From a virus: a DNA stretch of 64,000 nt. The notes beneath the pieces were generated by a model. That model was not told the origin of the DNA. It saw only the letters and a list, made by a program, of their open reading frames with translations, and ran no database searches. The stretch spans positions 19,417-83,416 of the IMG/VR virus record IMGVR_UViG_3300028837_004134; one strand, written 5' to 3'. Position 1 is the first letter of the stretch, and each line of letters begins with the position of its first letter. A program made the translations under genes and the position numbers. This document shows, one piece after another, positions 12,530-19,453 of the stretch.

Positions 12530-15199
12530 TCATTTGAGCAGCACCATCTTCCGGCTTTCGACGAATTCACCGGCTTCAAGACGGTAGAAGTAAACACCGC
12601 TGGCGACGTCGCTGCCATCCCAGGTACATGAGTATTCTCCCGGGCTGAGGTATTTATCTGCCAGAGTTGTTATCCTCTGCCCCATGACGTTGTAGATTTC
12701 GAGCTTTGCGTGGGATCCCCGAGGCAAGGAGAACCTGATCTCAGTAATCGGGTTGAACGGGTTCGGGCGGTTTTGCGACAAGAAGAACGATCCTGGTAAC
12801 TCTCTCTCGCTTGGATTCTCTGCATCATTGTAATCCCCTGGTGCAGGCCGAGGCTGATCATCCATGCAACCTTGCACAATATTGAAGCCCTTCTCGTTCT
12901 CCTTCACGTCTAAATTCTCATAGAGCGGAACACTTGGCCAATTACGGACAAAGATTCTGTAGCTACCTGCAAGAACGTCCTCAAACGAGTATACACCAGC
13001 AGCATTAGTCGTGACAGTATCTATGCTATCCGTCAGCGTGTTCACGAGGCACACATACAGACCGTTAATAGGGGTAGCATCGTCAAGGGTAGGGTCACAG
13101 TAATGTTTTGCCCAGCCCTTGATCTCAAACCCAGGCGTGCAGAAGTTCCTGTAGGGCGAACTCCAATCACCCCAGCCGCAATCATTATGAGCACGAACAC
13201 GCCAGTAGTACCTGGTGCCTTGAGCGAGACCGGAGGCGTTGTAGTAAGACGGTTGGGCATCTATCACCGGCAAACTGAAATCGGGGTTGGTGTCCACCTG
13301 GATCTGGTACTTGTCCGCACCACTGACATCACTCCAATCAAGATGGACCGGCTGAGACTGCTTCCTTGCCTCACTATCCGGACTCACATACAACGGTGCA
13401 GGCGGCGCCGATATGACCGTCACTGTCCTGTCCGGACTATCACCGCTGCAACCACAATCGTTACATGCCCGGACATCGTAGGTGTAATCACCTATGACAT
13501 TCTTGGTATAGCACTTCTGACTCACGTTGCCCACGTTGTCCCAGGAACCACCATTCTCCCGAATCTCATAGAATGTGGCGCCAGACACAGGTGACCAACT
13601 CACACAAAACTCGTTATCCACGCACACCGGGTTCGGCGACGCTGTGGGCTGAGGAGGTGGAGGGGGGGGACCATTCACCGTCACACATCGCTGAGGACTA
13701 TTACCGCTGGTCCCACACTGGTTCTTTGCCTTTACTGTGTAGCAGTATTCGCCCGGGGACGGCTTCGACGTGCACCAGCTTGTTGTATTGCCGACATTCT
13801 GACAACTGCTTCCCACACAGACCTCATACGAAGTCGCACCCGACACCGAACCCCATGTCAGGCAGTATTGTGAATTCACGCATACCGGATTGGGCGAAGC
13901 CGACGGTGTGCCCGGTGTACCGGGAACATCGACTGCGTAAAAGTTACGAGTTGAACACCAGTAGCCACAACCGCAATCATCATTGCATCCCGCCACCCGC
14001 CAATAATACGTCTTCCAGGGATCAAGGCCGCTTGCATAATAATGTGATGTGGATGTATAGACGTCTATCACCGGGCTGGAAAAATCTGAATTGTCATCTA
14101 CCTGCAAATGATATTCTGTCGCATCCCCGACGTCCGACCAGTCGATAGGTACCGACGGATTAACACAAACCGTTGTGTTATGTGGTACCAATGGCACCGG
14201 TGCGCCGGGAACATCGACTGCGTAAAAGTTACGAGTTGAACACCAGTAGCCACAACCGCAATCATCATTGCATCCCGCCACCCGCCAATAATACGTCTTC
14301 CAGGGATCAAGGCCGCTTGCATAATAATGTGATGCGGATGTATAGACATCTATCACCGGGCTGGAAAAATCTGAATTGTCATCTACCTGCAAATGATATT
14401 CTGTCGCATCCCCGACATCCGTCCAGTCGATAGGTACCGACGGATTAACACAAGCCGTTGTGTTATGTGGTACCAATGGCACCGGTGCGCCGGGGGTTTC
14501 GCAGTTTATATCCAAAAAGTATTCACCGCTTGCCGTATTATTGCACCATACTACCAAACCATACCAGTCAGTCGACTGCACTGTATAAGTAAAGGTCTCA
14601 TCCCCCGATATGCCATTAACATCTGACTTCCTGATTTGTGCAGAGCGGGTGGCGTAGTATGCGCTGTTCTCTGATTTAAATAATGCCACCCCTAAATCAA
14701 TTGTTCCATTTGTTATATCCAATGTAAAGGTAAATGTCTCCCCTGCTTCTAAATAAACATCCCAGATTTTGACCACATGATATGAGTCCCAATTATAGGC
14801 TCCAAATCTTCCGGGTGGGTCTAGATATTCGCTTCCGTTTTCGTATTCAACGTAACACCCGACTGATCCACTGTATTTCTTAATCTTTATCCCCTCCCAT
14901 CCGGTTGGTGAATGATTGTAATCAGTCACAACATAATCCACTGCATCGCCTGACCATTCAGACGATGCCACCAAGTTGCTAAATGAAGTTTCAGTATATA
15001 ATTGAATATCCCAATCATCGCCACTCATTGGCCTAACCCCTACAACAGCCCAGAAATAATCACCTTGATTGTATTTGAAATACCACGGCGTAGTGTATCC
15101 CAAGATGTTAATAACCTCTCCATCGGAAAGTACCTGCGCTGGAAATACAGGGGAAGCCATTATCACATAAAACAGGGAAATCAATATCAACGTTCTCAT
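12530..15199 (-). CDS. Secreted Cys-rich FN3-repeat protein with T9SS type A sorting domain
   Basis: Signal peptide MRTLILISLFY..; YHLQVDDNSDFSSP..YYWRV FN3 units; C-terminal LSQNRPNPFNP..SGVYFYRL..KMVLLK. Confidence 0.9.
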   Translation of the reverse strand: MRTLILISLFYVIMASPVFPAQVLSDGEVINILGYTTPWYFKYNQGDYFWAVVGVRPMSGDDWDIQLYTETSFSNLVASSEWSGDAVDYVVTDYNHSPTGWEGIKIKKYSGSVGCYVEYENGSEYLDPPGRFGAYNWDSYHVVKIWDVYLEAGETFTFTLDITNGTIDLGVALFKSENSAYYATRSAQIRKSDVNGISGDETFTYTVQSTDWYGLVVWCNNTASGEYFLDINCETPGAPVPLVPHNTTACVNPSVPIDWTDVGDATEYHLQVDDNSDFSSPVIDVYTSASHYYASGLDPWKTYYWRVAGCNDDCGCGYWCSTRNFYAVDVPGAPVPLVPHNTTVCVNPSVPIDWSDVGDATEYHLQVDDNSDFSSPVIDVYTSTSHYYASGLDPWKTYYWRVAGCNDDCGCGYWCSTRNFYAVDVPGTPGTPSASPNPVCVNSQYCLTWGSVSGATSYEVCVGSSCQNVGNTTSWCTSKPSPGEYCYTVKAKNQCGTSGNSPQRCVTVNGPPPPPPQPTASPNPVCVDNEFCVSWSPVSGATFYEIRENGGSWDNVGNVSQKCYTKNVIGDYTYDVRACNDCGCSGDSPDRTVTVISAPPAPLYVSPDSEARKQSQPVHLDWSDVSGADKYQIQVDTNPDFSLPVIDAQPSYYNASGLAQGTRYYWRVRAHNDCGWGDWSSPYRNFCTPGFEIKGWAKHYCDPTLDDATPINGLYVCLVNTLTDSIDTVTTNAAGVYSFEDVLAGSYRIFVRNWPSVPLYENLDVKENEKGFNIVQGCMDDQPRPAPGDYNDAENPSERELPGSFFLSQNRPNPFNPITEIRFSLPRGSHAKLEIYNVMGQRITTLADKYLSPGEYSCTWDGSDVASGVYFYRLEAGEFVESRKMVLLK
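13921..14493 (-). repeat. Two near-identical 285-bp FN3 coding repeats
   Basis: Copies start at 13921 and 14206. Confidence 0.9.
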
Positions 15200-15332
15200 T
15201 GTACCCTCCAAGACTTGTGTTTCACTTCTTACTCGGATTCCTTCGTTGTCCATTCAACCCTCTATAGCTGCATCGTGGTGCAGTTGCAGAGAATCAGACA
15301 GGAGAAATCGGCAGTTTTGTTGAGAAATGCGG

Positions 15333-17495
15333 CTATTCTCGGCCTTCGACCATGCGAAGCTGGCCTTCGGTGACCCAACCGGAGTCGGTCCAGTAGGTTA
15401 CGGCGTCGCGGAGAGAGCCGTAATACGCCCGTGCGTCCTCAATCGGTGGCAGTTTGCCTTCTGCGACCAGGTGCCGGCGGTGGGTTATCAGGAAATCGTT
15501 CATGGCAACTTTGATGACTCGCAGGCGGTGATCAATGGTATAGATCAGCGAAGGCGTGTACTCGAATTTGACGGATTCGGAGATATGGACCTGAATTTGG
15601 CCGTCGTCAGCCAATCGTATGCCGTTGGGGCCGGGGGAGTTGTACCCCATAGGTAGCTCGCCGGGAAGGCAACCAATGTCTGATTTGGGAAAGAGAATGT
15701 AGCCCACTTGATTTCCTGGAATCCACCAGGGGTATTCGTTTTCTATACCAGGTTCGATGGGCGAGAAACCCTGAATGGAATCAGGTCTCAGTACTAGCAA
15801 GGCAACGCATTTCTTCCTGTTATAGAATCCTGTAAATAGAATCTCCTGCTGGCCGTCGCGGTCTATGTCTATCATCTTCTGGACGACCCCGTGCCCCCAG
15901 TGAATATACCATCCCAGCGAGTCGCCGTTCGGATTCCACAGTCGAAGATGTGCGCGAGCCGGTAGCTCCTGGTAAACCGTGGAGATGATTATTGGTCCGT
16001 TCCTCGTCTCCGCAATCCCTAGATAGCCCGCATCATATTGCACTCCTGTGGTGTCTTTCGGATATCTTCCCAGAATGGCTGCGTTTCGCATCCACCGAAG
16101 CTGCCCGTCATGCGAATAGAACCGGAGGAGCGCCCTGTCGTTACATACTTCATCGATTCTCGGCAGGAAGACGACCTCGTTCTTGCCATCGCTGTCGAAA
16201 TCATACAACCGGCCAAAACATGTGGCCCAGAGATTATCGCTGGTGATCTTGGAAATAGGACACGACAGCACGTCAGCCCATAACAAAGTACTGTCCCGGT
16301 TGTAGACTTCAAGTCCGTTAGTTGCTGGGTTGGCGATGGCATAGACAGGATTATCGTCAAACCAGGGCATGTAACTGGCCGGAGCCACCAGGTAGTACAA
16401 CACAGCCAGCATGACCAGCAGTGCCGGAACCTCTACCCAAACCGACCGCTTTGCTTTCCATGCCCTGCGTGCGACATAAGCGGCTGCTGAAGACCGCTCA
16501 GCCAATATCAAACGGGGATCGTTGACCACGGCCCCGATGGTCTCCACTCCGGCCAGATCGAGCCTTCGGCCAGGATCCTTCTTTTCCAGCTCCAATACCT
16601 GTGTCTGTGCGTCGGCCAGGTGCTTGCGGGGAATCACCAGGAGACTCAGATACGAATGGAAGGCCCGATAGATCTTGAGTTTGAGAGCATCGCTATCTAC
16701 CGGACTGAGTCTGCCATCGGCTGACAGGGCTCCGCTGAACGCCACCGAAGGCGAAACCGAAAGTTTGTCGCGGAATACCTCTGTTCTAGTCATGGCAGCG
16801 ATGGCACCAACCGCAAAAGCCACGCCCAGGGAATCACCTGTAAATCTAGCACCGGAAGAGTCAACGGCATAATCAAATCGGTAGCGCTTCTTGTGTGGCA
16901 ACCCGTATCGAGTTTCGAGGAATGCCCGTGCGGCCTTGATGGAATCGCGAGCCTGGGCAAGGAATCGATCATCGGGTTCACTCACCGGATTGCGAACAAC
17001 GACGTCATCGTCTTCTGCTTGTGAGGATATCCTGGAGGCGGTGACGATCAGATTCAATATGCGGCCTCTTGGGAGCAGATCCAAATCCGGATAATGTTCC
17101 ACGAAAAGGCAGGTGATGCGCACAGAACTTCCCGGCGACGAATGTAAAAGCGGAGATTTTTCCGCACCCATATCGATCTTGCCAGCCAGGCACGAAAAGG
17201 CATCGATATCATCCGGAGACACGACGACAGTTGGCTGTGTCTTCAGAAGATCAACCAGTCTCTCAACAGATTCAGTTTCCTCAGGTAGGAATTCCTGGGG
17301 ATCACTCTTGCCGGCTGCGATGGCGAGAGTCGGGATAAACTCACGGAAGTAGGACTCAATCCCTGCACCTTGATGGGACGCAACGGGATCAAAGAACCGC
17401 AGCCCGCACAGTAACCTCAGTTCAGGCATCTGTGCCAGCTTCAGGTCGTGGCGAAGTCGTGATGCCGCCCTTTCGATTTCTAATATGGAATTCAA
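15333..17495 (-). CDS. Single-pass membrane protein: cytoplasmic Lon (S16)-like protease domain + extracytoplasmic FG-GAP/beta-propeller-like domain
   Basis: TGDS222LG, VAFSGALSADGRLSPV, LKLK274, LLVIP match the Lon proteolytic domain; TM ~352-372 after RRAWKAKR; DFDSDGKNE and DIDRDGQQE repeats. Confidence 0.75.
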   Translation of the reverse strand: MNSILEIERAASRLRHDLKLAQMPELRLLCGLRFFDPVASHQGAGIESYFREFIPTLAIAAGKSDPQEFLPEETESVERLVDLLKTQPTVVVSPDDIDAFSCLAGKIDMGAEKSPLLHSSPGSSVRITCLFVEHYPDLDLLPRGRILNLIVTASRISSQAEDDDVVVRNPVSEPDDRFLAQARDSIKAARAFLETRYGLPHKKRYRFDYAVDSSGARFTGDSLGVAFAVGAIAAMTRTEVFRDKLSVSPSVAFSGALSADGRLSPVDSDALKLKIYRAFHSYLSLLVIPRKHLADAQTQVLELEKKDPGRRLDLAGVETIGAVVNDPRLILAERSSAAAYVARRAWKAKRSVWVEVPALLVMLAVLYYLVAPASYMPWFDDNPVYAIANPATNGLEVYNRDSTLLWADVLSCPISKITSDNLWATCFGRLYDFDSDGKNEVVFLPRIDEVCNDRALLRFYSHDGQLRWMRNAAILGRYPKDTTGVQYDAGYLGIAETRNGPIIISTVYQELPARAHLRLWNPNGDSLGWYIHWGHGVVQKMIDIDRDGQQEILFTGFYNRKKCVALLVLRPDSIQGFSPIEPGIENEYPWWIPGNQVGYILFPKSDIGCLPGELPMGYNSPGPNGIRLADDGQIQVHISESVKFEYTPSLIYTIDHRLRVIKVAMNDFLITHRRHLVAEGKLPPIEDARAYYGSLRDAVTYWTDSGWVTEGQLRMVEGRE

Positions 17496-17513: not shown

Positions 17514-18326
17514 TTATTGATAGAAATACATTTCCAGCTTCTCGACGGCATCAATATCGCCAAAAGATGCCTGGTCGGAGACCACTGGCTGTATCTGAAC
17601 TAATTGCTCTGTTCCAGCCACACGAACTGCTACCTTCAGAGTCGCCTTCATGTGCACTTTCGACAACTCAAGAATCTGGATGTCAAGACGGTAGTTATGA
17701 CCTTCACCGGTCAACGCTACTTTGACGCGGTCACCACTGGTCGACTTGAGTTCGGCAGTGTCCCCCGTCTCGTCGGCTCCGAATGGGCTCAAGATAAAAG
17801 TGGCCTTTGGCGGTCTCACTTCGGCGGCAGACAGCTCCTTCTCAGGCCAATCAACGACACCCAGATTCACGCGGCCTTGAGTGTCAGTTACGAATTCCTG
17901 ATTCCCCAAGGGCAATTTCACCAGGACGTTCTCATACAGAGTAGGATCATCAGCCACGACATACAGCCATGTTTCCTTGGTATGAGCGTCTCGAACGGCT
18001 CGAAGCAGGACCTGTTGATCTTCCGAGGCAAGCGTGATTGCATCTTTCTCGGTGTCTCGTTGCGCACCCTGTGCGGCCAGTTTCAGCGGTGTCGGTCCGC
18101 CCGGGGTAGCGTCCAGTGGCAAGGGCATCAGGCGTATAATATCTGGCGTCGCCGAAGCATCCCAAACGGCCTGAAGGCGCTCCAGCTCCTTGTTCAGCTG
18201 AGTCAACGTGAACCGGCACTGGGGACAGTCCTCCAGATGGCGCTCCAGACTTACCTGGTTTGGGGCGTCTTCCTCCAGCAGATACCTCTCCCACTGCTCG
18301 CTGGTTGGGCATTCCCATTTCTGCAT
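17514..18326 (-). CDS. Soluble zf-HC2 anti-sigma-like protein
   Basis: C6..H30LEDC34PQC37 ZAS motif; Pro/Gly linker ending LKLAA; beta-rich C-terminal domain; no TM. Confidence 0.75.
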   Translation of the reverse strand: MQKWECPTSEQWERYLLEEDAPNQVSLERHLEDCPQCRFTLTQLNKELERLQAVWDASATPDIIRLMPLPLDATPGGPTPLKLAAQGAQRDTEKDAITLASEDQQVLLRAVRDAHTKETWLYVVADDPTLYENVLVKLPLGNQEFVTDTQGRVNLGVVDWPEKELSAAEVRPPKATFILSPFGADETGDTAELKSTSGDRVKVALTGEGHNYRLDIQILELSKVHMKATLKVAVRVAGTEQLVQIQPVVSDQASFGDIDAVEKLEMYFYQ

Positions 18327-18424: not shown

Positions 18425-19453
18425 TCATAAGTATTGTTTCCTCATGGCTTCAATGAAGCCCTTTTGGACTGACTCAGCCAGGTATTCGAATCTGGTTCGC
18501 AGGGTCTGCCTGTAGTCTTCAAGGGTCAGGCTTGGTTTGTGCACGTGAAGATACTCATAGTAACTCTGTGCCGGGCCACCATCAGCACAATCGGCTACCA
18601 GATCGGAAAGAGCTAGCCTAAACACTTCGACGACATCTGGATGTAGCTTTCCTGTATCCTGATATCGAGCGAGCTTGATCTCCACATTCTGAAAAGCCTG
18701 ATCGGTCGCACGGTCAATGGCCACCGACAGAAGAGGGTCATCGCGATTGCGGGGAACCTCATTCGCCAATTGTTGGGCCTTGATCTCAGAAGTGGTTTCA
18801 CGCAGGGCAGAGAACAGTATCTCGACCTGAACAGGTTTTTGGAGGCCAGCAGTACGAGCGACCTGCAAGAGAATTGCATGGACCAAATCCGTGAGATTCC
18901 CGTAATGCGCACCTTGCTCGTTGATGATCCTGACCAACTCGTCATGGCTTAGAGGAGTCTCATTCGCTCTGAAGTCGGCTATATTTGTCAGGGTGACCCA
19001 TTCGGGTTTATCAACGGGAAAAACCACCACGCGCTCATCCTGGCGAATTACTCGATGAAGATTCCTCCAGAGGCGAGCGCTCAGAGCATCGTTCTCCCCC
19101 CACCGGTGGAACAACTCCTGTGATGCGGCTCTGACCACCACGGACTTGAATTTCAGGAACAGGGGGGTATCATCGTACTGAAGCATGTTCGCCAGTGCCT
19201 TTACCAAAGGCGAATCTGGCGCGTCCTTACTGAACAAACCTGAAAGGACGGATGTCGCCATTTGCTCAACCGATGTCTCCTGAGCTTGAGACGCTGCATG
19301 TAGCCGCCCCCAGAGCTTTTCCCGGACAATAGACGCTGCCAGTCTAACTAATCGGCCAACCGGCATGGCGTTGGAGGTCCCTCCGCAGTACTGACGGAGA
19401 CATCCAGCGACCTCAGCAATGAGATTATTGTCGGAGGCCGCTTGGTATCTCAT
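18425..19453 (-). CDS. Helical protein, putative highly divergent ECF sigma-like factor
   Basis: SVEQMATSVLSGLF..FKSVVVRAASQELFHRW resembles sigma region 2; next to a zf-HC2 gene; ATGA overlap with hsdR. Confidence 0.5.
   Translation of the reverse strand: MRYQAASDNNLIAEVAGCLRQYCGGTSNAMPVGRLVRLAASIVREKLWGRLHAASQAQETSVEQMATSVLSGLFSKDAPDSPLVKALANMLQYDDTPLFLKFKSVVVRAASQELFHRWGENDALSARLWRNLHRVIRQDERVVVFPVDKPEWVTLTNIADFRANETPLSHDELVRIINEQGAHYGNLTDLVHAILLQVARTAGLQKPVQVEILFSALRETTSEIKAQQLANEVPRNRDDPLLSVAIDRATDQAFQNVEIKLARYQDTGKLHPDVVEVFRLALSDLVADCADGGPAQSYYEYLHVHKPSLTLEDYRQTLRTRFEYLAESVQKGFIEAMRKQYL

Follow-up and report, generated by a model that had tools for sequence, protein, structure and literature searches.

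How might a soluble anti-sigma-like protein be made to let go of its partner when the gene beside it encodes a membrane-anchored protease? The question is raised by three adjacent genes in the window (the 64-kb stretch of DNA analysed here), which encode a 342-aa sigma-like protein, a 270-aa anti-sigma-like protein and a 720-aa Lon-type protease (Table 1). No functional name for any of the three was found among database matches, which carry only ‘hypothetical’ or incidental labels, a PADLOC scan of the three proteins returned nothing, and no description of the trio was found in the literature searched. The original prediction, made from the DNA letters alone, held that the Lon-type neighbour cuts the 270-aa protein after A85, at the end of a Leu-Ala-Ala (LAA) sequence, and that ClpXP then destroys the N-terminal fragment. 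The prediction is supported by the analysis presented here, with cleavage, the exact bond, the ClpXP step and sigma activity all inferred.

A precedent is provided by the CalpL/CalpT/CalpS system. CCaCalpT is cut by CalpL in the sequence LAA|A and both fragments remain bound; cleavage alone is insufficient for release of the sigma factor, and the exposed LAA, a C-degron that is inactivated by the A204D substitution, is needed as well, which bears out the premise that a cleaved CalpT fragment is removed through an exposed degron. A flexible loop of SsCalpT is cut on the C-terminal side of a conserved Ala (VLRHVA|ST), and the S1 pocket of CalpL has been judged to accept only Ala or Gly. Among other anti-sigma factors, RsiW is degraded by Clp proteases, as is the cut fragment of RseA, whose Ala-rich C-terminus ends in VAA.

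Table 1. Features of the three genes, with coordinates in the window and the basis on which each was assigned
Feature	Position	Strand	Basis
270-aa soluble ZAS-type anti-sigma-like protein (main subject)	17514..18326	-	ORF translation
N-terminal zinc anti-sigma domain, residues 4–58 (H30-x3-C34-x2-C37 at 18216–18239)	18153..18317	-	Alignment, Pfam, profile, fold
Flexible Pro/Gly-rich linker, residues 69–95	18042..18122	-	DSSP coil, pLDDT, column entropy
Motif L83-A84-A85-Q86-G87 (predicted scissile bond A85|Q86, between bases 18072 and 18071)	18066..18080	-	Conservation
CalpT10-like small β domain, residues 91–174	17805..18056	-	VIA-align
C-terminal β-sandwich, residues 175–270, MATH/TRAF- or FN3-like	17517..17804	-	VIA-align
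720-aa membrane-anchored Lon-type protease (cytoplasmic N-domain, S16 domain, one membrane helix, outer FG-GAP-like propeller)	15333..17495	-	
Ser222 codon of the 720-aa Lon-type protein	16830–16832	-	
Lys274 codon of the 720-aa Lon-type protein	16674–16676	-	
Membrane helix of the 720-aa protein, residues ~352–376	16368–16442	-	Hydropathy
342-aa helical sigma-like protein, sigma region-2-like fold at residues 7–121	18425..19453	-	AlphaFold2 and fold matches

Domain architecture of the anti-sigma-like protein

The AlphaFold2 model of the 270-aa protein (136-row alignment; mean pLDDT 88.6, pTM 0.78) contains three helices within residues 9–58, a strand at 64–68, coil at 69–95 and β strands over residues 96–270. 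The succession of a zinc finger, a Pro/Gly linker and a β-rich domain, read originally from the translation, is reproduced by the model; the linker had also been taken to end at A85, which does not hold, as the coil runs about ten residues further. Confidence is lowest within this coil, with pLDDT values of 65 and 69 for the 10-residue blocks 71–80 and 81–90, and A85 is located in this least confident stretch. The strand at 64–68, which is conserved (I64, L66, P68), separates the zinc domain from the linker. A membrane segment was not found in the 270-aa protein, where the maximum 19-residue hydropathy is 0.79 and no segment of that length reaches 1.6; the protein is therefore not an anti-sigma factor of the type released by regulated intramembrane proteolysis, the class to which RseA and RsiW belong.

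The N-terminal part of the protein is assigned as a zinc anti-sigma domain, with partner binding inferred. H30, C34 and C37 are present in 146–147 of 151 aligned rows, the remaining rows being gapped at these columns, and the HxxxCxxC zinc motif was found in the anti-sigma proteins of all 31 loci examined. The Pfam family zf-HC2 (PF13490) matches the window protein only weakly (15.3 bits, under the cut-off of 22.2) and matches 21 of 136 family members at E ≤ 0.01, the best at 7.4e-6. When the family profile was compared with the PDB, solved anti-sigma factors were recovered, namely RsiW (0.0016), RslA (0.006) and DdvA (0.01), and the fold of the domain matches RsiW in VIA-align (5wuq_C, Z 5.6).

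Past the linker, residues 91–174 of the model resemble CalpT10 as seen in the CalpL/T10 complex (8b0u_C; Z 5.6, rmsd 3.2 Å, 73/76 residues, 14% identity). Among the matches listed by VIA-align, which compared the model with 48,161 PDB chains, this is the sole one covering the domain, and the N-terminus of the CalpT10 fragment falls on model residue 91, six residues past A85. The resemblance, which rests on a predicted model, is structural only and of middling strength; by sequence, no match to DUF2080 (PF09853) was found in family members or in 284 sampled genomes of one phylum, 93 of which carry the anti-sigma family. The idea that the region beyond the linker docks on the protease gains support from this match, docking itself being inferred. 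Residues 175–270 of the model form a MATH/FN3-like sandwich, a generic fold, with VIA-align Z scores of 6–7.5 to KLP-6, SPOP MATH, TRAF6 and FN3 domains, and a Foldseek search with the whole model returned only generic β-sandwich rows with poor TM-scores. Armadillo-repeat matches, the only ones from a single-sequence PDB search with the 270-aa protein, were rejected as spurious.

Conservation of the LAA motif

L83-A84-A85 is encoded at 18072–18080 (reverse complement CTG GCC GCA) and is followed by Q86-G87. LAA occurs once in the 270-aa protein and is expected 0.25 times from its composition, so that presence alone, in one protein, is at chance level and meaningless. The conservation of the motif, unlike its mere presence, lies far beyond chance. 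Absence of LAA from homologues had been named in advance as a result that would refute the prediction, and the motif proved nearly invariant.

A word-indexed search identified 22 relatives of the 270-aa protein, in whose alignment A84, A85 and G87 are all invariant. An exhaustive HMMER search gave 208 cluster representatives at E ≤ 0.001, and conservation was counted over 151 family representatives with a mean identity of about 28%. Across these, position 85 admits Gly in two cases, Ala in the other 149 and no further residue, and position 84 is Ala in 146. Position 83 is Leu in 113, Met in 15 and Ile in eight (136 of 151 in all), and the tripeptides LAA, MAA and IAA are found in the same numbers (113, 15 and 8 of 151). 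Downstream of the predicted bond, position 86 is mostly D, Q or K and position 87 mostly G, S or T, giving P1’P2’ pairs such as DG, QG, DS, KG and similar.

The A85 column has an entropy of 0.10 bits, which ranks second in conservation among the 270 columns and above the zinc ligands, whereas the flanking linker is near-random (4.16 bits for residues 69–82 and 3.70 bits for residues 88–95). Such a conserved island amid variable columns is the hallmark of a short motif with a function of its own inside a disordered linker. The distance from A85 to the first β strand is 14–17 residues in 141 of the 151 sequences, and an LAA-type motif is kept in 31 of 31 loci examined. The motif is also retained in tandem-ZAS variants; three proteins of 324–348 aa (P0059, P0088 and P0154) carry two tandem HxxxCxxC anti-sigma domains ahead of it. 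Four other sequences (P0074, P0070, P0055 and P0073), considered as natural ‘pre-cut’ forms, were rejected as truncated pieces.

The Ala/Gly-only S1 pocket described for CalpL matches the pattern of 149 Ala and two Gly at position 85. That the LAA motif is the Lon cleavage site is considered probable, with cleavage an inference.

The Lon-type protease and the question of cleavage

The neighbour had been called a Lon from the outset, an assignment that is upheld: judged by its sequence, the 720-aa protein is an ATPase-less Lon-type (MEROPS S16) Ser-Lys protease, for which catalysis is inferred. S222 and K274 do not vary across 62 Lon-type sequences and are conserved in both subfamilies, and no Walker-type ATPase module was seen in the 720-aa protein. 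Against the PDB, the Lon profile matches A. fulgidus LonB (1z0b, E 5.9e-6), where the GDS and K motifs line up, as well as T. onnurineus Lon (3k1j, 0.003) and 8dvh (0.005); T. onnurineus Lon was named by the CalpL authors as the nearest relative of the CalpL protease domain. CalpL itself is absent from the PDB matches of the Lon profiles. Pfam recognises Lon_C in three of ten orthologues (best 2.9e-5) and FG-GAP_3 in seven of ten, with no match for the window protein on its own. No match to a SAVED domain was found in the 720-aa protein, and residues 1–350 used as a query returned orthologues only and no SAVED proteins. The membrane helix reaches a hydropathy maximum of 2.16 and its flanks carry charges of +4 on the N-terminal side and −2 on the C-terminal side, which places the protease domain in the cytoplasm, on the same side as the proposed substrate.

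The invariant dyad bears on whether the motif is cut at all. Binding motifs, too, typically show up as brief conserved stretches within disordered linkers, and the motif could instead be a linear binding element left uncut, for example a pseudosubstrate occupying the Lon active site or a contact for the sigma-like protein, that works by binding and release through partner switching; classical anti-sigma domains often contact sigma region 4 by a fourth helix, and only three helices are present here. However, a Ser-Lys dyad kept in all 62 Lon-type partners argues for real catalysis, neither the Gly- and Pro-rich flanks nor the G, S or T at position 87 favour a helix, and restriction of position 85 to Ala or Gly fits a P1 pocket. 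Binding without cleavage is regarded as distinctly improbable, and cleavage at the motif remains the preferred reading.

Recurrence of the gene trio

The gene order sigma-like, anti-sigma, Lon recurs in about 30 loci. In external loci, the anti-sigma gene has a Lon-type gene beside it in 29 of 30 cases and a sigma-like gene in 28 of 30. Ten of the loci come from metagenome-assembled genomes labelled Zixibacteria or Ignavibacteria, where anti-sigma and Lon genes are found in the same order in all ten and a sigma-like gene was detected in eight; at twenty more distant loci, the sigma-like and anti-sigma genes are present in all twenty and Lon in 19, with one partly masked. The dyad motifs are kept in all unmasked Lon proteins of these loci. 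In one genome a 1002-aa open frame that looked like a fusion of anti-sigma and Lon was resolved into two separate genes.

One locus (L017:4811-6816) contains a sigma-like and anti-sigma pair with the motif (SLAAHG), followed by convergent unrelated genes and no Lon gene. A second anti-sigma copy is located on another contig of the same genome.

This orphan pair, with a motif and no adjacent Lon gene, counts against the full chain of events proposed below, and it would suit a different explanation, in which the motif is structural and packs on the β or zinc domains, or is cut by an unrelated housekeeping protease, Lon having another substrate. The linker pLDDT of 65–69 points the same way, being low and not extreme, so that the motif may be partly ordered rather than fully disordered. 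Set against this are the near-random linker columns that adjoin the motif, the adjacency of Lon in all but one of the 30 external loci and the second anti-sigma copy in the orphan-locus genome. A structural role, or a cut by another protease, is accordingly rated very improbable.

The sigma-like partner

The AlphaFold2 model of the 342-aa protein is all-helical (pLDDT 90.6), and every PDB match listed for residues 7–121 is a sigma region-2 domain. They include, with Z scores of 7.0–7.5, SigC (7.5, 88/89 residues), SigW (7.3) and AlgU (7.0), together with six more; BldN, SigK, SigI6, RpoS and WhiG are among the further matches listed. Searches by sequence gave no Pfam sigma match in the protein or its family, nothing in a single-sequence PDB search and, in an hhalign comparison of the family with 20-odd ECF sigma factors of three host genomes, a Prob of 0.4%. 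Foldseek returned no significant rows for the model, ranking sigma32 first and sigma28 third. As sequence methods are blind to a sigma identity, the label ‘sigma-like’ is used, and a role as a working sigma factor is inferred from the predicted fold only. Some gene callers use a later start for this protein (P0170, 278 aa); orthologue alignments, which hold from about residue 5–10 onwards, favour the long 342-aa form.

ClpXP in related hosts and the proposed degron step

No tmRNA gene is present in the window and its source record is only an 83-kb fragment, and five related genomes that carry the trio were therefore used instead. A clpP-clpX operon is present in all five, and their tmRNA tags end in YAMAA in four and in YALAA in one. 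With MAA or LAA closing these host tags, the C-terminus that the cut is predicted to create, [LMI]-A-A, would be of the hosts’ own degron type. The predicted C-terminus of the fragment released from the 270-aa protein is hydrophobic-Ala-Ala, as in the tmRNA tags of the five genomes; unlike an ssrA tag, the LAA here is internal and needs endoproteolysis, and the likeness to the tag is confined to the last three residues of the predicted C-terminus.

The same residues can be read without a degron. If Lon cuts the motif and release of the partner is independent of ClpXP, then [LMI]-A-A-[DQK]-[GST] would be purely a protease recognition sequence, and the cut might destabilise the anti-sigma domain, or Lon, FtsH or the receptor itself might finish the degradation. 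The conserved residues at P1’ and P2’ (D/Q/K and G/S/T) are superfluous in a C-degron, so that recognition by the protease could by itself account for the conservation; the new C-terminus of SsCalpT ends in ...H-V-A and not in AA; and the strand at 64–68, if it pairs with the β domains, would keep the fragments together after the cut, as reported for CalpT. On the other hand, residues 83–85 are exactly of the class read by ClpX, hydrophobic-Ala-Ala, and match the ends of the hosts’ ssrA tags, and release of the sigma factor from CCaCalpT required the LAA degron beyond cleavage. Recognition without a degron is rated unlikely, and removal of the cut fragment by ClpXP is retained in the mechanism proposed below.

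Proposed mechanism and relation to known systems

In the proposed mechanism, the 270-aa protein would at rest hold the sigma-like protein through its zinc anti-sigma domain while docking, via its CalpT10-like domain, onto the membrane Lon-type protease on its cytoplasmic side. On receipt of a signal, itself inferred, by the outer FG-GAP propeller, the ATP-independent Ser222/Lys274 protease would become active, perhaps by oligomerisation as in CalpL, and the flexible linker would be cut with A85 as P1 (L-A-A|Q-G). Fragment 1–85 would then end in an unstructured tail, ...P-L-K-L-A-A-COOH, that mimics the host ssrA tag, and its unfolding and degradation by ClpXP would free the sigma-like protein. 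No experimental or read-level evidence of cleavage exists, and the full chain, from signal through the Lon cut after A85 and removal by ClpXP to release of the sigma-like protein, is given an even chance of being correct.

As in CalpL/CalpT/CalpS, the gene for an ATPase-less Lon-type Ser-Lys protease adjoins those for a sigma-type protein and for a soluble inhibitor made of two parts. The inhibitor also resembles CalpT in having a flexible inter-domain loop (residues 69–95) with a conserved Ala at the predicted P1 position, and the domain past this loop is similar, in its predicted fold only, to CalpT10, the part of CalpT that docks on CalpL. The differences are considerable. In contrast to CalpL, the 720-aa protein has no SAVED domain or cA4 sensing; it crosses the membrane by a single helix and carries an FG-GAP propeller on the outside. 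The part predicted to bind the sigma-like protein is a three-helix zinc anti-sigma domain and not MazF-like as in CalpT, an extra MATH/FN3-like β-sandwich is present and DUF2080 goes undetected by sequence, whilst the 342-aa partner, unlike CalpS, is unrecognisable as an ECF sigma factor by sequence. There is also no type III CRISPR context, the neighbours in the window being hsdR and a gene for a T9SS protein. Without SAVED, a MazF-like domain or CRISPR context, and with no DUF2080 found by sequence, the trio is described as CalpL/CalpT/CalpS-like and not as a member of that system.

The RseA/DegS/RseP/ClpXP and RsiW/PrsW/RasP/Clp systems are alike in that an anti-sigma factor is cut and an Ala-rich cytoplasmic fragment is cleared by Clp, as proposed here, and RsiW is the protein to which the N-terminal domain is most similar. 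They differ in that the anti-sigma protein of the trio has no membrane helix, the membrane-spanning sensor being the protease itself, and one cytoplasmic Lon-type cut would substitute for the cascade of site-1 and site-2 cleavages.

The trio may thus represent an undescribed class of single-pass ‘receptor protease’, in which an FG-GAP propeller controls a cytoplasmic Lon domain that cuts a docked anti-sigma protein, with ClpXP following, and which is plausibly a non-CRISPR relative or ancestor of CalpL/CalpT/CalpS; this proposal is tentative and stands somewhat short of an even chance. If it is true, the CalpL-type logic of protease, anti-sigma and sigma factor exists beyond CRISPR and is tied to an envelope sensor, and a divergent sigma-like factor is activated across the membrane by one cut. 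To regulated intramembrane proteolysis and partner switching this would add a third route by which signals from outside reach a sigma-type factor, and a functionally nameless gene trio would gain a prediction that can be tested at the level of residues (A85|Q86, Ser222 and the LAA degron).

Genomic surroundings of the trio

In the window, the sigma-like gene starts before hsdR (type I restriction) has ended, with an overlap at 19450–19453. At ten other loci no hsdR gene was found next to the trio, so its coupling here is taken to be local, reflecting a defence-island or provirus context, and hsdR is not counted as part of the system.

Directly downstream of Lon, at 12530–15253 on the minus strand, lies a gene whose 907-aa product is rich in Cys, contains FN3 repeats and has a T9SS sorting domain at its C-terminus. 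Genes with T9SS tails are also located just beyond the trio in L005, L007, L008, L009, L010 (on the opposite strand) and L011, and the conserved T9SS-secreted gene hints at a cell-surface regulon; its product could be part of such a regulon or a cargo that is monitored.

In one Ignavibacterium genome, a canonical ECF sigma factor (G002:C17:68644-68829; Sigma70_r2, E 6e-12) is encoded about 5 kb downstream of the trio.
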